Origin: Aulosira sp. DedQUE10
Lineage (GTDB): Bacteria > Cyanobacteriota > Cyanobacteriia > Cyanobacteriales > Nostocaceae
Assembly (NCBI GenBank): GCA_034530935.1
Contig: JAVRCF010000137.1
Coordinates: 1 to 14,573, forward strand
Reading direction: 5' to 3'
DNA length: 14,573 nt
Shown: positions 2,862-13,260 of the stretch, piece by piece
Numbering within the stretch: the first letter of the stretch is position 1
Layout of the letters: each line of letters starts with the position of its first letter
The notes under the pieces: model-generated
Databases searched by the model: none
Told to the model about the DNA's origin: nothing
The model's input: only the letters and a program-made list of their open reading frames with translations
Program-made: the position numbers and the translations under genes

Positions 2862-3740
2862 ATGTCACGTTTTTCTGAAAAGTTTTTCAGCCAACTCCTA
2901 GACTTTTCTGATCTGGAGAAAACAATAGCATCAACAATGCGTTTAGCAGCACAAAGTCCTATTTCGTTCTATCTTTTCTTCCAGCGTTACACATATTTCA
3001 ACGGCTATGCATCTGCTGTGATTTCCAGGCTAGCGAGTTCTATTGCCATGTCTCGCTATTTGTTTACTGACTCTGAAATCTTGGTAACTGAGGAGGCAGA
3101 TAGAGGATTCCAAATTTCTGCTGAGATTATGGTTGCGGCATCTGATGAAGGAGCATACGGAATTACACATCGTGAACTAGCTCAATTGCTGCTCACAAAA
3201 GCAGGAGACTATGCAGGACTCTCTAGCGATGATCGCAACCAATTTTTTCAGGTTCCTGCTTGGTTAGATGAGATTGTCAAGGATGTGATGACTGCTTACC
3301 AGGGAACACCTGGTGATGTTGTTTCCCTAATTCGAGCAATCGGATTTCATGCGGCTTCGGAAATGCTGGGCGATCGCGAGTATGCCCTAATTGACATGAT
3401 TGTCCGTTATGAAAACCAAGGAGTTGGATTTGACCGCTATTTCAAAGAACAGACTACTCCTGTCCAAATCCGAGGTCATCGTTATGATCCCTGGTGCTAT
3501 ATTTTAATCCACGGCAAGCATGAAGGTTCCGGCGCAGAAGCTAGGCACTTTTTGCATGTTGTAGAAGCTCTGAATATGGTAGTTCGCTATCGCCCTGAAT
3601 CAGAGCAACAAATTGTGGAGTGGGTGCTTGAGGGTTATCAAGCATTTGTAGAGTTACAACAGCGCTTGTTCAAAGAACTTTATCGTGAATGTTTGGAACT
3701 GCTTGAGAATTCAAATACAGCGAATTTGATATCTGTTTAA
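2862..3740 (+). CDS. Hypothetical protein; possible heme-oxygenase-like-fold iron-containing redox enzyme (PF14518 / HDO-like)
   Basis: 292-aa ORF, predicted all-helical and soluble. The segment AEIMVAASDEGAYGITHRELAQLLLTKAG resembles the dE.G....H..L..ll..lG core of the iron-containing redox enzyme / heme-oxygenase-like family. Further candidate carboxylate/His ligands are E167 (HAASEMLGD) and H217/H220/E221/H229/H232/E235. It contains a HIP1 site at 3370-3377. Coding status is likely (~0.9), and the product call is tentative (~0.4). Confidence 0.55.
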   Translation: MSRFSEKFFSQLLDFSDLEKTIASTMRLAAQSPISFYLFFQRYTYFNGYASAVISRLASSIAMSRYLFTDSEILVTEEADRGFQISAEIMVAASDEGAYGITHRELAQLLLTKAGDYAGLSSDDRNQFFQVPAWLDEIVKDVMTAYQGTPGDVVSLIRAIGFHAASEMLGDREYALIDMIVRYENQGVGFDRYFKEQTTPVQIRGHRYDPWCYILIHGKHEGSGAEARHFLHVVEALNMVVRYRPESEQQIVEWVLEGYQAFVELQQRLFKELYRECLELLENSNTANLISV

Positions 3741-4032: not shown

Positions 4033-4689
4033 ATGTTTACTTGGCAAGCGGTAATTGGTGTAGTTGCAGGTTTTCTCTCCCTATTAGGTTTTCTACCGTA
4101 TCTAGTTAGTATCTATCAAGGAAAAACTCGACCCAATAGAGTAACTTGGTGGATTTGGGCGATTGTCGGTCTCATCCTTTGCTCCAGCTATTACTCCTCT
4201 GGAGCTGTTAACACGATATGGGTTCCAGTCTGTTCAGCAGTTGGTCATCTGATTATTGCCATTCTTGCCATTAAATATGGTGAGGGTGGTTGGAACCGCT
4301 TTGACCGAGGGTGTCTATTAAGTGCTGGTATTAGTCTTTTACTTTGGTGGCAGTTTAGCTCTCCCATCATTGCCCTTGTGATCAATATCGGGATTGATTT
4401 TCTAGGTGCATTACCCACAATCAGAAAGTCCTACTATCAACCACAGACAGAAGATCCTTTCACATGGACAATATTTCTGTCGGCACATACACTTAATCTT
4501 TTTGCCCTCAAAAATTGGTCTTTTGCACTCTCAGCTTATCCGCTCTACTTATTTTGCTCCACTGCTACCATCGTTATATTTCTTCTGCGTTCTAAAATGC
4601 AAAGTCAACCAACCGCTTACAAACAGCGCAGAAGCAGAATAATGAACAAAAGCAGGACTTTTTTTGCTCTGATCACGCACTCTAAGTAG
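4033..4689 (+). CDS. 7-TM integral membrane protein with internal duplication; PQ-loop / SWEET-like (3+1+3) architecture
   Basis: 218 aa. I count seven hydrophobic segments (about res 5-27, 37-54, 60-80, 92-108, 111-130, 143-159, 163-185). Helix 1 and helix 5 end in a related motif 106 residues apart: [22 protein letters not shown] (18-39) versus [22 protein letters not shown] (124-145). This resembles the LPQ..k.y..kst.g.s PQ-loop signature. The basic C-terminal tail is probably cytoplasmic. Confidence 0.6.
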
Positions 4690-4727: not shown

Positions 4728-7559
4728 TTGGGAATCTTAGAGTTAGAAAGCCATGAAGATTTGAATAAAGCAACAAACTCGAGTATGTCATTAAAACTCA
4801 TCCCTAGCCAGATTTATAAAGATGGCAAAGCTAAAAAAATCTCACTGCGTTTAATTCTTGTTGTCCCTTTTGTGATGCAAATTGTTACAACTGTGGGTCT
4901 GACGGGATATCTATCGCTACGTAATGGACAAAAAGCTGTTAATGAATTAGCAAATCGATTGCTAACTGAAGTAAGTGAACGCATAGATCAACACCTAGAT
5001 AGCTATATGCAAGTTCCTCAGAAGGTTGTTCTGCTGACCTCTGATGTGATTGATATGGGCTTGTTGGATTTACAAAACAAACAACAACTGGGACAGTTTT
5101 TCTGGAGGCGAATAAAATCATTTGATATCGGCTATATTCTCTTTGGGTTTCAAACAGGTGATTATATTGCCTCTGGATATCTCTTTGGTGACAATCGCAT
5201 TACTATTGATGAATTATCTCCAAAAGATTACAAGGGCAGTACTCATTTATATAGTTGGGCAACCGATAGCCAGGGCAAACGCACCAAGATTATTCAAGAT
5301 AATGGAGAATTTATTGCCAAGAATGAGGGCTGGTATGCAGAGGCCGTAAAACAAGGCAAATCGGTTTGGAGTCCGGTTTATAACTGGTTAGTACCGCCAT
5401 TTAACTTATCTATTGCAGCTAGTCGTCCTATCTATGACTCCAATCATAATCTGCTTGGTGTAATTGCTGCAGAACAACGTCTTTCACAAATTAGTGATTT
5501 CTTGAGCCAATTGAAAGTCAGCCAAACGGGAAAAACCTTTATTATTGAACACAATGGTTTTTTGATTGCCAGTTCTAGTAATGAACAACCCTTCACAATC
5601 AAAAATCAAAAACCCCAACGCCTTTCTGTATTTGAGAGCAAAGACCCACTTATCCAAGCAACTGCAAAACATTTGACTGAACGCTTTGGCAACTTCAGTA
5701 AAATTCGCAATTCTCAGCAAATTGATTTTCTACTCAAGAGTAAGCATCAGTTTGTCCAGGTCACTCCTTGGCGCGATGAGTGGGGACTCAATTGGCTGAT
5801 GGTTGTCGTAGTGCCTGAAGAAGACTTTATGGCTCAGATTCATGCCAATACTCGTACAACAATTATGTTGTGTTTATTAGCTTTAGGACTAGCAACTGTG
5901 TTGGGTTTTTATACATCTCGCTGGATTACCCAACCCATTCTGGAATTGAGTCAGGCTTCTGAGGCGATCGCTGATGGTAAACTTGAGCAGCAAGTAGAAG
6001 AGTCCCATGTTAATGAACTCAGTGTTCTCTCTCAATCGTTCAACCGTATGGCACAGCAGTTGCGCGAGTCTTTCACTATCTTGGCAAAGAGCAATGAAGA
6101 ATTAGAAATCAGGGTTGAGGAACGCACGACCGAACTTAAGGAAGCTAAAGAAGCTGCTGATAGTGCCAACACAGCCAAAAGTGAATTCCTTGCCAACATG
6201 AGCCATGAACTACGTACACCTCTCAATGGGATTTTAGGCTATGCCCAAATCCTTCAAACCTCGAAAAATCTCACAGAGAAACAGCATAGAGGCATCAATA
6301 TTATTAATCAATGTGGCTCACACCTCCTGACCCTAATTAATGATATTCTTGACCTCTCCAAAATCGAAGCCCGGAAAATGGAATTGCATCCTACAAGTTT
6401 TCATTTTCCTTCTTTTCTGCAAGCAGTTTCTGAAATTTGTCGCATTAAAGCCGAACAAAAGGGTATTACTTTTGTTTATCAACCTGATGAACGACTGCCA
6501 ATTGGCATCCAAGCTGATGAAAAACGTTTGCGTCAAGTTTTGATCAATTTATTGGGCAATGCGATTAAGTTTACTGAAAAAGGTACTGTCACATTTGAAG
6601 TAAAAATTCAGCAGATTAAAAATCGCGATCAAGACAAACCATTAACCTACCAAATTCGCTTCCAAGTGGAAGACACTGGTGTAGGTATGGCTAGTGAGCA
6701 AATAGAGAAAATCTTTTTACCCTTTGAGCAGGTAGGTAACATTAAAAAACAATCAGAGGGAACAGGATTAGGTTTAGCTATTAGTCATAAAATTGTTGCC
6801 ATAATGGGCAGCACTATAGAAGTGCAAAGCCAACTGGAACAGGGTAGCATTTTTTGGTTTGATATAGAAATCCCTGAAGCACAAGAATGGGCAAATAAAT
6901 CTAAAGTTTCTCAACAGGAAACGATTGTTAGTTTTAAAGGCGAAAAACGAAAAATTCTAGTAGTAGATGACCGTTGGGAAAATCGGTCTGTATTAGTTAA
7001 TCTGTTGGAACCCATTGGTTTTGAAATTGTAGAAGCAGAAAATGGACAAGAAGCATTAGTAAAAACTGCTGAGTTTCTGCCTAACTTGATGATCACCGAT
7101 GTTAATATGCCAGTGATGAATGGATTGGAGATGATACAAAATTTGCGAAATTCTCCCGATTGGAAAGATTTAAAGATAATTGTCTCATCAGCAAGTGTGT
7201 TTGACTCTGATAAGCAGAAGAGTTTAGATGCAGGCGGCGATGACTTTCTTCCCAAGCCTGTGCAAGCATCTGACCTATTTGAAAAATTACAGACTTATCT
7301 AGAACTAGAATGGATTTATGAGGACAAATCAACATCCTTACCAATTATAAAAGAAATAGTTATTCCTCCAATGGAGGAACTAAATCAGTTATATGAACTG
7401 GCATTACAATGTCGGATTAAAGCGCTACAAAATAAATTAAATCAACTAGAAAAAATGGATATTAGGTTTAGACCTTTTATTGAAGAAATACAACATTTAG
7501 CGCAAAAATTCCAAATAGAAAAACTTCAAACTACTCTAAATAAGTATATTCAATTATAA
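4728..7559 (+). CDS. Hybrid sensor histidine kinase: TM - Cache-like extracytoplasmic domain - TM - HAMP - coiled coil - HisKA - HATPase_c - receiver - helical C-terminal extension
   Basis: 943 aa from the TTG at 4728; the first in-frame ATG is at 4785 (MSLKLIPS...), an equally plausible start. The N-terminal TM motif [36 protein letters not shown] is characteristic of cyanobacterial Cache-type kinases. A second TM lies at about res 376-397. The H-box is SHELRTPLN (His codon 6204-6206). N/G boxes are [12 protein letters not shown] and DTGVGM...GTGLGLAI. The receiver has VVDD...MITDVNMP (Asp codon 7098-7100) and a K in FLPKP. There is a HIP1 site at 5964-5971. Confidence 0.9.
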
Positions 7560-7625
7560 ATAAATGAGGTTCTAGTTTGTGAAAATGTAATTCTTTACGA
7601 TAATTTTTTATAAAAATGTAAAAAA

Positions 7626-9059
7626 ATGCATAATTCAGAGACAAATTTAATTTTAATTGTTGATGATACTCCTACAAACTTAGAAATGCTATCGGAAGCT
7701 CTAGCAGATGCAGGATTTGATGTGGCAGTTGCAACTACTGGAGAAATTGCAATTAAGCAAGTTGAATATGCTCCACCAAAACTGATTTTGTTGGATGTAA
7801 TGATGCCGGAAATTGATGGATTTGAAACCTGTTATCGATTGAAGGCAAATCCTAAAACAAAACATATTCCGATAATTTTTATGACTGCCCTTGCTGATAC
7901 AGTAGATAAAGTCAAAGGTCTGTCTTTAGGTGCTGTGGATTACATCACTAAGCCGTTTCAGCAAGCGGAGGCCCTAGCCCGTATTCAAATTCATTTACAG
8001 CTGCAAAATATTAGTGCAGAAATGGAGAAACAAAATGCACGTCTTCAACAAGAAATTGAAGAACGAGTAGCGGCAGAATTAGCTTTACAGAAGCTAACTC
8101 AAGATTTAGAGCACCGGGTAGAAGAGAGGACAAAGGAACTCTCCCAAGCACTGCAAGATTTACAAAAAACTCAAGTGAAGCTGATCCAGTCAGAAAAATT
8201 AGCTACACTGGGTCAGTTAGTAGCAGGTGTTGCACACGAAATTAATAATCCAGTCAACTTTATACATGGCAATCTTGAGTATGCCAGTTCCTATATTCAA
8301 GACTTGCTAGAACTCATCAAACTCTATCAGACTCAGTACCCTAATCCAACTCCAGAGATTGCTAACAAATCAAATGAAATTGAACTAGAGTTTCTCAGGC
8401 TAGATTTACCAAAAATAGTCTCTTCAATGGCAGTTGGGACTCAACGGATTCAGGAAATCGTCAAATCTTTCCGCAACTTCTCCCGTCATGACGAAGCTGA
8501 AGTCAAAACAGTAGATATCCACGATGGGTTAAACAGTACACTAATGATCATCGACCATCGCTTGAAGGAGAAAGCAGGCTGTCCGGCGATTCAAGTGATT
8601 AAAGAGTATGGAAATTTGCCTCGAGTTGAGTGCTTTGCCGGAAAAATGAACCAGGTTTTTCTCAACGTCCTCAGCAATGCAATTGATGCTTTGGAAGAGT
8701 TCATGGAAAATGAGCATTGTTTTCGTTGTACCCGATCGCCGATGATTCGGATTCAGACAGAAGTTCTGGAAGGCGATCGCATTGCTATTCGAATTGCTGA
8801 TAATGGACTAGGAATCGCAGAAGCAGTTCAAAAGCGATTGTTTGACCCCTTCTTCACAACTAAACCTGCGGGTAAAGGAACTGGTTTGGGGATGTCGATT
8901 AGCCATCAGATTGTGGTTGAAAAACACGGTGGCTCGTTGTACTGTATCTCCAGCCCAGGGAAAGGTGCGGAGTTTGTAATTGAGATTCCAATTCAGCAGG
9001 TAAATTTCGTTGCAAATAAGCAGCGTAGCGAAGTGGCTCTTGCGGGCTATTGGATCTAG
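7626..9059 (+). CDS. Receiver-histidine kinase (N-terminal REC, coiled coil, HEINNP-type HisKA, HATPase_c)
   Basis: 477 aa. The REC domain has IVDDTPTN, LLDVMMP (Asp57 codon 7794-7796) and ITKPF. The H-box is GVAHEINNPVNF (His codon 8235-8237). ATPase boxes are LNVLSNAIDA, DNGLGI and GKGTGLGMSI. I found no TM or obvious sensory domain. The start is 66 nt downstream of the hybrid kinase. There is a HIP1 site at 8773-8780. Confidence 0.9.
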   Translation: MHNSETNLILIVDDTPTNLEMLSEALADAGFDVAVATTGEIAIKQVEYAPPKLILLDVMMPEIDGFETCYRLKANPKTKHIPIIFMTALADTVDKVKGLSLGAVDYITKPFQQAEALARIQIHLQLQNISAEMEKQNARLQQEIEERVAAELALQKLTQDLEHRVEERTKELSQALQDLQKTQVKLIQSEKLATLGQLVAGVAHEINNPVNFIHGNLEYASSYIQDLLELIKLYQTQYPNPTPEIANKSNEIELEFLRLDLPKIVSSMAVGTQRIQEIVKSFRNFSRHDEAEVKTVDIHDGLNSTLMIIDHRLKEKAGCPAIQVIKEYGNLPRVECFAGKMNQVFLNVLSNAIDALEEFMENEHCFRCTRSPMIRIQTEVLEGDRIAIRIADNGLGIAEAVQKRLFDPFFTTKPAGKGTGLGMSISHQIVVEKHGGSLYCISSPGKGAEFVIEIPIQQVNFVANKQRSEVALAGYWI

Positions 9060-9066
9060 TTTGACC

Positions 9067-11049
9067 TTAGTAAAAATACTTGTTTTCTATTACTGTTGTT
9101 TGGCGAGTGGTGGAGTTGTATTCTAATAGGTATTCGTGGGCGATCGCTTCATTCTCTCTCAGTACCTCTACTTCTTTTTTACCTATTTCAGTATCAGTGG
9201 ATAGCAAAATTACCTGATGGCTGGCGGAAGGAAAGTAACGTTCTACTAAGTTGCTGCGGTGGGAGGAGTCGAGTCTTCCGAGTGGTGTGTCAATTGCTAC
9301 CGGAAGACGACGACCGGAGACTCGTGCTAAACCCCACAAAAATGCGATCGCCAGAAGTTGTTTTTCGCCAGCAGAAAGGCGATGTTTGGGGACTGGCTGG
9401 CCGTTTAAATCGTAAAGCGAAAGACTGAAGGTATGAGTGTCAATAGCCACGCGATGGACTAAATCGGATTTGTGTAGCAAGTAACGAAAGCACTCTGTCA
9501 CTTCGACTTCTAATTTATTGAGTTTTCTCAGGGTTAATTTCTTCCGAAAAAGTTTGAGAGTATCTTGAACTTTTGCAGCAGATGTGATTATATGTTCTCT
9601 ATTTTTGCGGTCGATATTCGTTTCACTATATTTTTCTAAATATTTTTTAGTATTGTCAATCTCAGTTGCTAATTCCTCCAAACGGCGTTTGGCTATTTCC
9701 CAAGCAGCTTTAGCTTCCGCAACTTGCTGTTGTGCTTGTTGTAATTCATCAACCAGCCTTTGATATTCTTCTGGTGAGGCTGCGGTTTGAATTTGCCTTT
9801 CTAAAGTGATAATTTCTTCTTCTTGAGACTGAAGAAATGTAATTTTATCTTTAGCCTTGGTTTTCGCATACTCAAGGTAATGATGAATCATATTATCTAA
9901 CTGATGCAGGGTTTCTGTATCAGCCAATAACCAAGGTTCAGTGATGACTGCGTTATCTAAATCTTGATTTTCTTGGGTGATAAATTCTTGAATCTGAGTT
10001 ACTGCTTCGTCTGCAAGAGCTAATTTATTAATCAAGTTGAGTAACTTTTTATCTCGCTCAATTAATAAATCATGAGCCACTTTCGCTTGTTGAACGCGAA
10101 ATTCTTTTTCGCCTTGGCTGTAAGCTTCATTTAGTAGAGGTGCAATCAATCCCAGAGGTAAAACATCAGCAGCTAAATCACATAGCGATTGACGGATTTT
10201 TTCTGTTTCCCCAATTCTTTCTAGCTTTTGTTTCTCTAACTGGCTGCGTTCTCCAGCAATTTTACCACCCTCAGAAATAAATTTATTCACAGCTTCCTGC
10301 TGTCTATTTTCGGCTGCTATTAAATTTTCTTGGAGAGATGTAATTAATTGCGATTCTACATTATACGCCTCTTGAGCCTCTTTCAACTTGTCTTCAATTT
10401 CTTCTAAATTTGCCAAATCTTTAGTATCAGCAAGTTCCTTGCGTTTGCGGTTGACTAAAATATCTAAATCCACTGCTAATCTTTCTGCCAACTCTAGCCC
10501 TAAAAGTCCGCTAATAGCATCTACTACAATTGGCGGTGGTACTTCCTGTTCTGCAAGTTCTTTAACTTGTTCGCCATCGAATAAAAATAAGTTAGAAATT
10601 CCTAGAGGTAGAAGATTTTCAATATATTCATCCCAAATATTTACTAAAGCCGTATCCAACCATTCATGGGCATCTAAAATCCCTAAATGGTCTTTACCAT
10701 CTTTAGGATTTTTTTCCCAAGTACGGACAACACGGTATTTTACTGGCTGGTCATTTTCGATATGTTCAAAAACTAATTCAATGCGCGTTTTCTCAACTGG
10801 CTCAGCTTTACTATTAACGCATTGAGTTAAGAAATCGCTATAACTTAAGTTACCACGGGTTGAACATTGGGCGCGATGACCATAAAGGGCGAGGCGAATT
10901 GCATCCATAAGGGTGGTTTTTCCGCCACCATTCATTCCACCTAACAGAATAATAGGGCGAGAATTTTCACTATTTCTTGGGTCAAGATTGATTACCTGTT
11001 TACCAGCGTAGGGGCCAAAGTTTTGTAATACGAGTTCAAGAAATATCAT
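9067..11049 (-). CDS. dndD: DNA sulfur modification protein DndD (SMC/ABC-like ATPase)
   Basis: 660 aa. The N-terminus MIFLELVLQNFGPYAGKQ...GGMNGGGKTTLMDAIRLALYG contains Walker A. A long central coiled coil follows. The C-terminus LSAGEKQLLAIAFLWGLARVSGRRLPVAIDTPLGRLDSSHRSNLVERYFPSASHQVILLSTDTEI has the ABC signature, Walker B and D-loop, and matches the DndD family pattern as I recall it. HIP1 sites lie at 9140-9147 and 9344-9351. Confidence 0.85.
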   Translation of the reverse strand: MIFLELVLQNFGPYAGKQVINLDPRNSENSRPIILLGGMNGGGKTTLMDAIRLALYGHRAQCSTRGNLSYSDFLTQCVNSKAEPVEKTRIELVFEHIENDQPVKYRVVRTWEKNPKDGKDHLGILDAHEWLDTALVNIWDEYIENLLPLGISNLFLFDGEQVKELAEQEVPPPIVVDAISGLLGLELAERLAVDLDILVNRKRKELADTKDLANLEEIEDKLKEAQEAYNVESQLITSLQENLIAAENRQQEAVNKFISEGGKIAGERSQLEKQKLERIGETEKIRQSLCDLAADVLPLGLIAPLLNEAYSQGEKEFRVQQAKVAHDLLIERDKKLLNLINKLALADEAVTQIQEFITQENQDLDNAVITEPWLLADTETLHQLDNMIHHYLEYAKTKAKDKITFLQSQEEEIITLERQIQTAASPEEYQRLVDELQQAQQQVAEAKAAWEIAKRRLEELATEIDNTKKYLEKYSETNIDRKNREHIITSAAKVQDTLKLFRKKLTLRKLNKLEVEVTECFRYLLHKSDLVHRVAIDTHTFSLSLYDLNGQPVPKHRLSAGEKQLLAIAFLWGLARVSGRRLPVAIDTPLGRLDSSHRSNLVERYFPSASHQVILLSTDTEIGKKEVEVLRENEAIAHEYLLEYNSTTRQTTVIENKYFY

Positions 11050-11285
11050 TTATCTCTGTTGGTTGGATGAAATACTGGAGGAAGAGAATTTTGGTTACAC
11101 AGGGAAGCAATTATAAAACACCGGGCTGGACTTTTAGCATGAAAAATGTTTTCTACTCAATTGAAAATAGCTATCAAACAAGCCTTACCAAAGTAAATCT
11201 TAATAGATTTGGATTATTTATTCCCAAATGAGTTGGGCTAGATTAAAATTTCCATCAGTATAATCTCGTATTTAATGCTTAAACT
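11050..11285. promoter_or_regulatory. Divergent intergenic region between dndD and the NLR-like locus, with candidate -10 boxes on both strands
   Basis: A TATAAT box on the plus strand at 11259-11264 lies 21 nt before the ATG at 11286. A TATAAT box on the minus strand (plus-strand ATTATA at 11110-11115) lies ~60 nt before the dndD ATG. Neither has a convincing -35 element, so the calls rest on position only. Confidence 0.3.
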
Positions 11286-11660
11286 ATGGAGCCTGTGACA
11301 CTGACAGCAGCCGCGATCGCTACCTTAGTTATTACGAAAGCTTTTGAAAAAATTGGTGAAATCCTAGGCGAGAAGGCTTTAAAGCAAGGTGGTAACTTAT
11401 TATCGCTGCTCAAGCGCAAAGAACCTACTATAGCGAAAACTATTGAACTGGCTCAAACACAACCTTTAGATTACGGTCAAGCTTATCTCATTGGGCAGCA
11501 AGTAGAGGAAGCGGCAAAGAAAGATAATGAAATAGCTGAAGCTGTCGCAGCCTTGGCAAAGGAAGCACAACCGCAATTAACTCAAACTATTGAAAATTAT
11601 CAAGGGATAATCATCAAAGGCGGAACTAATACTATTTCTGGCAATACCTTTAACTTCTGA
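11286..11660 (+). CDS. 124-aa helical protein with a hydrophobic N-terminal helix and a G/N/T-rich C-terminal tail; probable N-terminal effector/adaptor module of the downstream NB-ARC protein
   Basis: ATG start with a TATAAT box upstream. The N-terminus is MEPVTLTAAAIATLVITKAFEKIGEILGEKALKQ (hydrophobic, then amphipathic). The middle is Ala/Glu/Lys-rich and helical. The tail is NYQGIIIKGGTNTISGNTFNF. The ORF ends at TGA 11658-11660, which is in frame with the next ORF. There is a HIP1 site at 11313-11320. Confidence 0.7.
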   Translation: MEPVTLTAAAIATLVITKAFEKIGEILGEKALKQGGNLLSLLKRKEPTIAKTIELAQTQPLDYGQAYLIGQQVEEAAKKDNEIAEAVAALAKEAQPQLTQTIENYQGIIIKGGTNTISGNTFNF

Positions 11661-11720
11661 CTACAGCCGCCTGAACGGGAACAGGTAAAGTCTCATCCCC
11701 TTAGTGAAATACCGCAAAAT

Positions 11721-12971
11721 TTGCCCCTTAGTGGAGTGGTAATATTTGTTGGACGTGGGGAAGAATTGCAAAAACTCCACAAACTTTTGCAGCAAAATCA
11801 ACAAGTAACCATTGCTGCGATCGCGGGGATGGGTGGAGTTGGGAAAACAGAACTCGCCTTACAATATGCCATCCAGTACCGCGACAATTATCAAGGTGGA
11901 ATTTGCTGGTTGTTGCCAAAATCTGGGGATATTGGCGTGCAAATTGTCCAGTTTGCCAGAACGCAGCTTGATTTAAACCCGCCGTCAGATTTCGATTTAC
12001 CCGCGCAAGTGCAATACTGTTGGCGGCGTTGGCGTGAGGGTGATGTACTGCTGGTGTTGGATGATGTTGCTGATTACCAGAAAGTCAAACCTTACCTATC
12101 GTCGCTATCTTCTCGGTTTAAAATACTGATTACCACTCGCCAGCACTTGGGATGCATAGCAGAATTATCCTTAGATGTATTGCAACCAGAGGCGGCGCTG
12201 GAATTATTAAAGTCAATTATTGGGGTTGAACGGGTTGAACAGGAAAATCACCGCACCCCCCAAATAGCATTACAGTTATGTGAGTGGCTGGGATATTTGC
12301 CTTTGGGTTTAGAGTTGGTGGGGCGGTATCTGGCGCGGAAACAAGATTTATCTTTAGCAGAAATGCTGCGACGGTTGGAGAAAAAGCGACTAGAACAACC
12401 CGCACTTGGTAAGCCAGAAGCCGACATGACAGCACAACGGGGTGTGTTAGCAGCCTTTGAGTTGAGTTGGCAAGAATTACAGGATAGCGATAAACAACTG
12501 GGCTGTTTATTGAGTTTATTTGCAACCGCACCCATACTTTGGAATTTGGTGGAACAGTGTTTACCACAGGAAGACGGGGAAGATTTAGAAGAAATTAGAG
12601 ATGATAAATTGCTAAAACTGCATTTACTCCAGTGGAAAGGTGAGGGAGTCTATCAATTACATCCCCTGCTGCAGGAGTTTTTCCAATATAAGCTTACAGC
12701 TTTAGAGCAGGCAGAGGAATTAAAGCATTCTTTTTGCAAAGTAATAGTAGCAGTTGCTAAAAAGATTCCTGATTATCCTACCTTTGAGCAAATCACTGAT
12801 GTCAATTTGGCAAAACTCTACTACTTACAAGGACGTTATACACAAGCAGAACCATTGTATCTGCAAGCATTGGAGATTTATGAGCCACGATTAGGGGTGA
12901 ATCATCCTAACACTGTCAAGTTTCGTGAAAATTTGGCAAATCTTCGCGCCCAACTCTCCTCAGAACAATAA
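11721..12971 (+). CDS. NB-ARC (STAND/NLR-like) NTPase with a single residual TPR unit; probably N-terminally truncated or interrupted
   Basis: The P-loop is GMGGVGKT (11826-11849). Walker B is LLVLDDV, followed by KILITTR and a GLPL-like LPLGLELVGRYLA motif. The C-terminus is the TPR_10/12-type NLAKLYYLQGRYTQAEPLYLQALEIYEPRLGVNHPNTVKFRENLANL. The only available start is TTG 11721, which falls inside the conserved-looking IPQNLPLSG..FVGR linker. The 20 codons upstream are sense codons in the same frame back to the TGA at 11658. There is a HIP1 site at 11817-11824. Confidence 0.8.
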   Translation: MPLSGVVIFVGRGEELQKLHKLLQQNQQVTIAAIAGMGGVGKTELALQYAIQYRDNYQGGICWLLPKSGDIGVQIVQFARTQLDLNPPSDFDLPAQVQYCWRRWREGDVLLVLDDVADYQKVKPYLSSLSSRFKILITTRQHLGCIAELSLDVLQPEAALELLKSIIGVERVEQENHRTPQIALQLCEWLGYLPLGLELVGRYLARKQDLSLAEMLRRLEKKRLEQPALGKPEADMTAQRGVLAAFELSWQELQDSDKQLGCLLSLFATAPILWNLVEQCLPQEDGEDLEEIRDDKLLKLHLLQWKGEGVYQLHPLLQEFFQYKLTALEQAEELKHSFCKVIVAVAKKIPDYPTFEQITDVNLAKLYYLQGRYTQAEPLYLQALEIYEPRLGVNHPNTVKFRENLANLRAQLSSEQ

Positions 12972-13019
12972 AATTCCAGTTCTCAGCTTCATCATTCAAG
13001 CTTTTATCTCCAAGTTCCG

Positions 13020-13187
13020 TGTTCTGAACTCAAAGTTTAGTGTTCCAAACGAGAACGTTCCTGTTTCAACCTCGAAGCTTCGTGTTCCAAACGAGAATTT
13101 TCCTGTTCCAAACGAGAACGTTCTTGTTCCAAGCTCGAAGTTTCGTGTTCCAAACGAGAATGTTCCTGTTTCAAACTCGAAGTTTCC
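13020..13187. repeat. Tandem array B: eight contiguous 21-nt units of two interspersed subtypes (TGTTCCAAACGAGAAYGTTCC and TGTTYCAARCTCGAAGYTTCG)
   Basis: Units start at 13020, 13041, 13062, 13083, 13104, 13125, 13146 and 13167, each exactly 21 nt. Degenerate units flank the array (about 12978-13019 and 13188-13208). The array begins ~50 nt after the NB-ARC stop. The periodicity explains the spurious ORFs 12925..13242 and 12996..13235. Confidence 0.9.
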
Positions 13188-13188
13188 T

Positions 13189-13260
13189 GTTCTGAGGTGG
13201 AATGATGGTGTTATGGAGGAGGAGTGTGGTGTCATGAGGTAGGATGAAGAGCGATAGATT
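13189..13260. repeat. Direct repeat copy A (pairs with 13818-13879)
   Basis: Hand alignment of GTTCTGAGGTGGAATGATGGTGTTATGGAGGAGGAGTG...ATAGATT against copy B gives about 45 of 61 aligned positions identical, with one 11-nt indel. Confidence 0.6.

Follow-up and report, generated by a model that had tools for sequence, protein, structure and literature searches.

A conserved in-frame UGA joins a Bell-domain gene to an NB-ARC-TPR receptor in cyanobacteria and is a candidate site of programmed read-through

The window analysed here is the whole of contig JAVRCF010000137.1 (assembly GCA_034530935.1), 14,573 nt from a metagenome-assembled genome (MAG) of Aulosira sp. DedQUE10. It holds a small open reading frame (ORF) that ends at a TGA, and the same frame then runs on into an NLR-like ORF of the NB-ARC-TPR type. 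Judged by its sequence, the small product is a member of the Bell-domain family. The in-frame TGA is almost certainly a conserved and selected feature. We argue that it is probably a site of programmed UGA read-through, which would give abundant free Bell protein and a rare fusion of Bell, its signalling motif and the NLR. The Bell/NLR system and the protein family are already known. The conserved link through a putatively leaky UGA appears to be new.

The first-pass annotation of the window described an N-terminal module and an NB-ARC-TPR protein in one frame across a single TGA, and this description is correct. The ORF of 124 codons (11286-11660, with its TGA at 11658-11660) was reproduced from the sequence. 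The same frame then runs through 20 sense codons (LQPPEREQVKSHPLSEIPQN, 11661-11720), with no ATG, GTG or TTG among them. The first candidate start of the NLR is TTG 11721, which lies inside N-L-PLSG. The annotation also held that the NLPLSG..FVGR segment upstream of the P-loop is conserved, and this can be seen among the homologous loci.

We call the small product a Bell-domain protein because it is 79% identical over 124 residues to the product of a homologous locus (L025), which is exactly RCJ33357.1. This protein of Nostoc punctiforme NIES-2108 is the Bell-domain example in the legend to Fig. 1C of Dyrka et al. (2020, bioRxiv 10.1101/2020.01.06.895854). According to that paper, the C-terminus of a Bell protein holds an amyloid signalling motif (BASS), a second copy of which opens the neighbouring NLR. 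Homologues fall into 164 clusters in a word-indexed search and 473 in an exhaustive HMMER search. Nearly all of them are stand-alone proteins of 117-160 residues that end at the same position (...GNTFNF, ...NQTFNF and similar).

Conservation of the stop codon, the frame and the linker

The window was compared with 80 homologous loci, one genome per species; 78 Bell genes are intact, the window included. Their stops are TGA in 68 cases, TAA in 8 and TAG in 2. The TGA share among the other ORFs of the same loci is 19%, which gives the excess of TGA at Bell genes a nominal binomial p of 1e-38. Past the stop, 99 or more further codons are open in frame in 67 of the 68 TGA loci and in 0 of the 10 TAA/TAG loci (nominal Fisher p 9e-12). 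Among 311 other ORFs of 100 residues or more in the related loci, just 3 continue that far, and the median there is 9-13 codons. The shared-frame arrangement is far beyond chance. The continuation is an NB-ARC protein in 55 loci, and in these the distance from stop to P-loop is 150, 153, 156, 159, 162 or 168 nt. The NB-ARC loci range over Nostoc, Aulosira, Calothrix, Tolypothrix, Komarekiella, Dendronalium and Amazonocrinis. Loci from Aerosakkonema and Coleofasciculus are also included, where identity of the Bell protein is only about 50%. A pattern scan of metagenomes for the junction gave one extra locus only, and it too has the TGA in frame.

The bases that follow the stop are conserved as well. 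Of the 68 TGA loci, 64 have C at +4 and 61 have CTA as the codon after the stop. UGA is the leakiest stop codon, and a +4 C or a UGA-CUA context promotes read-through (PMC7026636).

Two minor groups of loci should be described here. In L022, L033 and L037 the Bell ORF (at about 4001) is broken by a premature TAA or TAG, while the TGA junction and the NLR further on are still there. Such loci exemplify real decay, in contrast to the conserved TGA. In L075 and L079 (TGA at 4400) and L073 (TGA at 4427) the continuation past TGA-CTA or TGA-CTG is just 124-133 codons long and has no Pfam match. The next ORF there is membrane-protein-like, has 330-400 codons, lies in the +1 frame and starts about 360-390 nt past the stop.

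Synonymous sites in the linker are about three times more conserved (pS, the synonymous difference per site, is 0.14) than those of the Bell (0.43) or NB-ARC (0.40) coding regions. The ratio of nonsynonymous to synonymous differences (pN/pS) is 1.39 in the linker and 0.25 in Bell. The 20 codons show no protein-level constraint, and their amino acids are nearly free to change. Since the synonymous sites are nevertheless conserved, this points to a constraint at the level of RNA. The stretch from the TGA to the first possible start has five separate indels (-9, +3, -6, -12 and -12 nt), each with a length divisible by 3, and in the aligned loci it never acquires a stop codon. An alternative coding frame behind the linker conservation was rejected, as the +1 frame meets a TAA at once in the CTA-AAG variants. 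Frameshifting was rejected too, because no slippery site is present and the NLR lies in the zero frame. In L071 (Calothrix rhizosoleniae, 4403-4440) the core GGGAACGGGT after the TGA is offset by 1 nt from the reading frame, which argues that this core is kept as nucleotides and not as codons.

RNAalifold predicts a hairpin in the linker with the consensus G(C/U)C(C/U/G)G - AACGGGAA - C(G/A/C)G(G/A)(U/C). Across 44 loci 99.5% of the cells are paired, and compensatory changes occur at two pairs (CG to UA; CG to UG, UA or GC). Cells with a double change number 14, against 2.7 in shuffles (0 of 500 shuffles). The window's own hairpin has the compensated U-A pair. A search for terminator-like sites found none, and a terminator or attenuator role of the hairpin was dropped.

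The receptor gene has no conserved start codon. Not one of the 55 NB-ARC loci has an ATG start. The Leu codon of NLPLSG is TTG, TTA, CTC, ATA or CTT, and the Val codons that follow appear as GTG, GTA, GCG or ACT. There is a TTG, GTG or ATG before the FVGR motif in 50 of the 55 loci and none in the other five. In L009, L043, L053 and L072 the first ATG, GTG or TTG lies beyond the conserved FVGR motif, and in L078 the sole candidate is a Met inside the P-loop. The NB-ARC region is still under purifying selection across the loci (pN/pS 0.34) and is therefore translated. The first-pass annotation had reasoned that the shared frame would be coincidental if orthologues consistently carried two genes, with an independent and conserved start and ribosome-binding site for the NLR. 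The stop is indeed kept consistently, giving two ORFs, but the NB-ARC ORF has no conserved start or ribosome-binding site. Coincidence does not explain a frame that is conserved across loci.

The TAA/TAG loci make the classic arrangement clear. All ten have the NLR in a different frame, with an ATG start 7-71 nt past the stop, and the first residues of each NLR repeat the motif from the Bell C-terminus (e.g. L067, L074, L048, L058, L060). In L067 the Bell protein ends in ...ENWKGINIKGGNSTINNPNFNF* and the NLR begins with MTTENWNGINIKGGNPVINISQSERAKLNPPKHLPYQG... The Bell motif is N-terminal in the classic partners L067 (MTTENWNGINIKGGNPVIN...), P0290, P0264, P0309, P0333 and P0348. NLR ORFs of the TGA type have neither the ATG start nor the motif copy. 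In the window the NLR ORF, taken from TTG 11721 or from GTG 11736, holds no copy of ENYQGIIIKGGTNTISGNTFNF, and only read-through would give the receptor the motif that it should share with its effector. The product of such read-through would run motif, linker of about 20 residues, NLPxSG..FVGR, which is the order in classic NLR N-termini. A protein search with a profile of the junction returned many of these N-termini (e.g. P0290, MINENSQGINVKGGTNTVTGNTFNFHSSEKPFKTIKHIPKIGSENFVGRE) and no fused homologue with a sense codon at the stop. The DNA of the translated NLR linker in L067 is homologous to the TGA-type linker, but it lacks the 5' arm of the hairpin. The earlier suggestion that the NLR lost its own N-terminus by deletion is thus unsupported, since its linker is homologous to the translated linker of classic partners.

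When the Bell helical domains are placed on a tree, the TAA/TAG loci fall at five or more points among those with TGA. Stop type, reading frame, ATG start and motif copy have therefore changed in concert, and repeatedly. The TGA-CTA joint also connects Bell in frame to other modules: an nSTAND1-WD40 protein (L070), another NB-ARC (L071), a transmembrane (TM) segment with a PsbP-like domain, and TM with PPC. All-in-one Bell-STAND fusions with no stop are rare (P0517). The first-pass annotation proposed aligning orthologues to find a sense codon at the TGA. Only P0024 (L082:3001-5692, Nostoc sp. CALU 1950) has one, a TGG for Trp; all others carry a stop. P0024 is the only fused homologue of the subfamily that was found. 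It is a chimera of a TPR fragment and a start-less Bell domain, beside phage-integrase and DUF4158 fragments, and is probably a rearranged dead copy.

A read-through model and its rivals

We propose that effector and receptor occupy one reading frame that is broken by a conserved leaky UGA. Most ribosomes would stop at the UGA and release the free 124-residue Bell protein with its amyloid-like motif at the C-terminus. A minority would decode the UGA, most likely with tRNA-Trp, aided by the weak UGA-C(UA) context and by the hairpin 8 nt downstream. These ribosomes would go on through the linker and the NB-ARC-TPR ORF and make a rare fusion of Bell, motif, linker and NLR. Through the fusion, the receptor would gain the signalling motif that is part of classic receptor genes. 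If Bell/BASS, Bab/Agp and HET-S/NWD2 are a guide, a fusion that is activated by its ligand and oligomerised could seed the amyloid fold and so template the free Bell protein, which is the abundant product. The same three systems suggest that the templated Bell protein would then kill the cell through membrane damage. We infer the read-through itself, the residue inserted, and the amyloid and cell-death steps.

We prefer read-through because the TGA, the frame, the context and an RNA-level constraint are all conserved, and because a start codon and a motif copy are both missing. The first-pass annotation had listed it as one of four candidates, the others being a nonsense-mutated single gene, a sequencing error and a pair whose NLR had lost its N-terminus. 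With a conserved TGA, frame and context and no conserved start, it is the best supported of the four.

Several points weigh against this reading. The case for it is entirely comparative, drawn from sequences. To our knowledge, conserved programmed read-through of chromosomal bacterial genes is barely documented. The loci are related to one another, so the p-values given above overstate their independence. The rules for UGA-CUA read-through derive mostly from eukaryotes and viruses. The hairpin is just 5 bp long, and its covariation could be partly coincidental since the arms also code for amino acids. It has no occurrence in 15 loci with a "type B" linker, where no other structure is supported, and the window sequence folded alone does no better than shuffles (z = +1.0). 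An Rfam search of 11000-12200 gave chance-level matches only. For these reasons the hairpin counts as moderate, non-decisive support. P0024 is rearranged and chimeric, which makes it weak evidence for insertion of Trp. In two loci from the Coleofasciculus/Symploca group, L077 (4451-4459) and L080 (3840-3848), an ATG or GTG stands right after the TGA in the same frame; the downstream protein of L080 is a CHASE2 protein. This suggests ordinary stop-start coupling there instead of read-through. Finally, most loci have a TTG or GTG within NLPLSGVV that annotation pipelines adopt as the start, and independent initiation at this codon is possible in many of them.

The last two points belong to the main rival, which holds that these are two ordinary genes. 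The TGA would be a plain terminator, and the NLR would be initiated independently, or by termination-reinitiation, at the NLPLSGVV TTG/GTG or a rare start. The shared frame would be a relic of an ancestral fusion, and the linker RNA would serve initiation as a standby site or regulator. Pipelines do call such starts (GTG in P0001, the TTG equivalent in P0002 and P0003), 50 of the 55 loci offer one before FVGR, and L077 and L080 have theirs directly at the stop. Bell/NLR pairs are also usually closely linked and probably co-translated (Dyrka et al. 2020). The trouble is that the candidate start is not constant, as its codons vary in the way given above and five loci have none before FVGR. It would be odd for a family of 55 members to be without one ATG start when the classic relatives all have it. 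Reinitiation is independent of frame, yet the frame has been kept through five indels and no stop has arisen. Two ordinary genes leave the exclusive use of TGA with C or CTA unexplained. They would also leave an NLR with no N-terminal signalling motif, unlike every classic partner. We consider two genes unlikely, though this is the explanation that has to be taken most seriously after read-through.

Another possibility is that the junction is mainly a recombination joint at the level of DNA, where Bell cassettes are swapped onto different receptors and the frame and TGA are carried along passively. The same TGA-CTA-CAG-TCG-CCC... does precede unrelated downstream modules, a few discrete linker haplotypes (types A and B) are combined with different Bell motif types, and the GGGAACGGGT core of L071 is 1 nt off frame. 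This does not explain why the TGA is constant, why the frame is kept or why the receptor has no start. The compensatory changes in the hairpin indicate a constraint on RNA and not on DNA. As the main explanation it is improbable, but the joint may also serve the shuffling of cassettes, which would be compatible with read-through.

A recent nonsense mutation, or an error of sequencing or assembly, could have split one effector-NB-ARC-TPR gene that is now a pseudogene in the making. The window does come from a MAG, its NLR is short of about 1.1 kb of TPR array, and there are both a fused homologue with TGG (P0024) and rare all-in-one Bell-STAND proteins (P0517). Neither a mutation nor an error would make the TGA recur at one and the same position in 68 of 78 homologous loci, which come from many genera and from isolates as well as MAGs; this excludes these two candidates of the first-pass annotation. 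Stand-alone Bell proteins of about 125 residues form hundreds of clusters, and the truly disrupted copies described above have their premature TAA or TAG inside the Bell ORF. Recent breakage is hardly credible.

Least probable of all is that the UGA encodes selenocysteine with the hairpin as a bacterial selenocysteine insertion element (SECIS): a conserved hairpin whose loop is G-rich does lie a short way past an in-frame UGA, but no homologue has Cys at the position (P0024 has Trp and classic NLR linkers have H, S, Y or I), the site is an inter-domain linker and not a redox site, Rfam gives no match, and type B loci have no hairpin.

The Bell protein, its receptor and their surroundings

The features of the locus are collected in the table.

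Table. Features of the Bell-NLR locus in the window.
Feature	Position	Strand	Remarks
Bell-domain protein gene	11286..11660	+	ATG-started ORF, 124 residues plus TGA; helical N-terminal domain, Gly/Asn-rich C-terminal tail
Putative BASS-type C-terminal amyloid-signalling-like motif ENYQGIIIKGGTNTISGNTFNF	11592..11657	+	Same motif N-terminal in classic NLR partners
In-frame stop in weak context, TGA CTA	11658..11663	+	TGA at 11658-11660; conserved across loci
20-codon linker LQPPEREQVKSHPLSEIPQN	11661..11720	+	Open in frame, start-less, conserved at nucleotide level
Predicted RNA hairpin GCCUG - AACGGGAA - CAGGU	11669..11686	+	RNAalifold; begins 8 nt past UGA
NB-ARC-TPR (NLR-like) ORF	11721..12971	+	From first possible start TTG; frame continuous with 11661
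P-loop GMGGVGKT	11826-11849	+	Within NB-ARC-TPR ORF
NB-ARC domain	about 11763-12395	+	PF00931, E 2.8e-16
Sole remaining TPR unit (TPR_12)	about 12795-12953	+	Domain search of NLR ORF
Junction of in-frame loss of about 1.1 kb	12803..12837	+	blastn against L001 (Aulosira sp. ZfuVER01)

The AlphaFold2 model of the Bell protein has helices at residues 8-16, 23-26, 29-45, 47-58, 63-79 and 81-106, at a mean confidence (pLDDT) of only 63. Its tail, residues 102-124, is disordered (pLDDT below 50). The predicted layout is thus Bell-like, with a helical domain of about 100 residues and then a short C-terminal extension. Searches of Pfam, NCBIfam and PADLOC with the small protein gave no matches. Foldseek, run with this low-confidence model against the PDB, had no match with E below 0.9, nor did a sequence profile search of the PDB find anything meaningful. 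Within the limits of such a model, these Foldseek and profile searches found no structural link to HeLo, Bab or MLKL. The names given by JGI to some Bell homologues, among them P0121, P0163 and P0219 (NADH dehydrogenase subunit G, undecaprenyl pyrophosphate synthase, V-ATPase subunit C), are evidently spurious.

The NB-ARC ORF has the same orientation as the Bell ORF and is 0 nt away from it in frame. The NCBI annotation begins the NLR at GTG 11736 (P0001, 411 residues) and calls the small ORF a hypothetical protein; from TTG 11721 the NLR would have 416 residues. Its Walker A motif is intact. Homologous NLRs have 690-920 residues, and where they have a TPR sensor array the window has one TPR_12 unit. 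The closest relative is the syntenic locus L001, which is 88% identical. Aligned with blastn, window 11178-12802 matches L001 3894-5517 and window 12838-13337 matches L001 6643-7165. Between these two matches L001 has about 1.1 kb (5518-6642) that the window lacks; it encodes the helical linker and about eight TPRs, and its loss leaves the frame intact. The NLR copy in the window may be a defective receptor, or the loss may be a collapse in the MAG assembly. The first-pass annotation took its four candidates to bear on how an immunity or cell-death switch is being lost or regulated. Loss does not hold for the TGA, and it could apply only to the missing TPR array, which the annotation did not mention.

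A tandem repeat array lies just 3' of the NLR stop (13014-13244; period 21/42/63 nt, consensus TGTTCCAAACGAGAAGGTTCC...), and a similar array is found 3' of the NLR in L001 (blast matches at L001 6815-7020). The neighbours are dnd genes for DNA phosphorothioation and two hybrid histidine kinases, a setting that resembles a defence island. The dnd genes are split. A dnd-associated methyltransferase (243-1694) and DndE (1767-2153), both on the minus strand, are about 7 kb from DndD (9067-11049, minus strand), which directly adjoins the Bell-NLR locus. Between the two parts are the two hybrid histidine-kinase/response-regulator genes (4728-9059, plus strand) and ORFs 2862-3740 and 4033-4689, which have no assigned family.

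Comparison with known systems

Amyloid signalling of the Bell/NLR kind was recognised recently as a bacterial counterpart to the cell-death signalling of fungi and animals. The collinear, adjacent NB-ARC-TPR receptor of the window is the one known from the Bell/NLR BASS pairs (Dyrka et al. 2020) and from the antiphage system Bab/Agp of E. coli (Ibarlosa et al. 2024, bioRxiv 10.1101/2024.11.07.622273). With the BASS pairs the likeness extends to the protein family and to a Gly/Asn-rich C-terminal motif, which related loci duplicate at the NLR N-terminus. The NLR of the window type differs in having no motif copy and no conserved start and in lying in frame behind UGA-CUA. Dyrka et al. (2020) defined pairs by a motif common to two separate annotated proteins. 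Loci of the TGA type would therefore not be scored as pairs. The text of that paper makes no mention of stop codons or read-through, and the searchable literature, whose coverage is incomplete, holds no description of read-through combined with Bell domains.

The logic is also that of the fungal HET-S/NWD2 system and of "all-in-one" NLRs, in which the prion-forming motif of an NLR templates a helical effector that targets membranes (via Dyrka et al. 2020). The likeness is one of logic; the searches showed no sequence homology to HeLo, and Foldseek gave no match. The fungal systems exist in a two-gene form and a single-polypeptide form, and a leaky-stop ORF that makes both products would be a third, intermediate one. 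We think the chances are about even that this applies widely, that is, that many cyanobacterial loci joining Bell to an NLR or to another sensor use programmed UGA read-through, with UGA-CUA and a 3' hairpin, to make an abundant effector of the pore-forming type and a rare seeding fusion, as a third NLR architecture. If so, the N-termini of hundreds of annotated NLR genes would be wrong, and searches for motif pairs would systematically miss such systems.

The recoding site of E. coli prfB, the gene for release factor 2 (RF2), reads CUU UGA CUA, and so has the same UGA-CUA, which RF2 recognises poorly. In prfB this leads to a +1 frameshift with the help of an upstream Shine-Dalgarno-like element. 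The Bell junction is different: the ORF past the stop is in the zero frame, and both a slippery codon and a Shine-Dalgarno-like element are absent. Since UGA-CUA is poorly recognised by RF2, the outcome at the Bell junction would depend on RF2 activity. If our reading is true, the output could be tuned by that activity, and disturbed translation termination could feed into the death switch.

The closest parallel in gene expression is viral. Read-through at UGA in the Q-beta coat/A1 gene, at UGA-C for Sindbis nsP4, and at UAG with a structure about 8 nt downstream for Gag-Pol of murine leukaemia virus (MuLV) gives in each case an abundant short product and a rare extended fusion (PMC7026636). 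The Bell junction likewise has UGA with a +4 C and a predicted RNA structure about 8 nt past the stop. It differs in being a chromosomal bacterial defence locus with a simple hairpin of 5 bp. If read-through is the true explanation, these loci would be among the first conserved chromosomal read-through families in bacteria, and a tractable one with a cis element of 40-60 nt. The ratio of effector to receptor would then be set in the same way as that of viral Gag to Pol, which would be a new regulatory principle for bacterial immunity.

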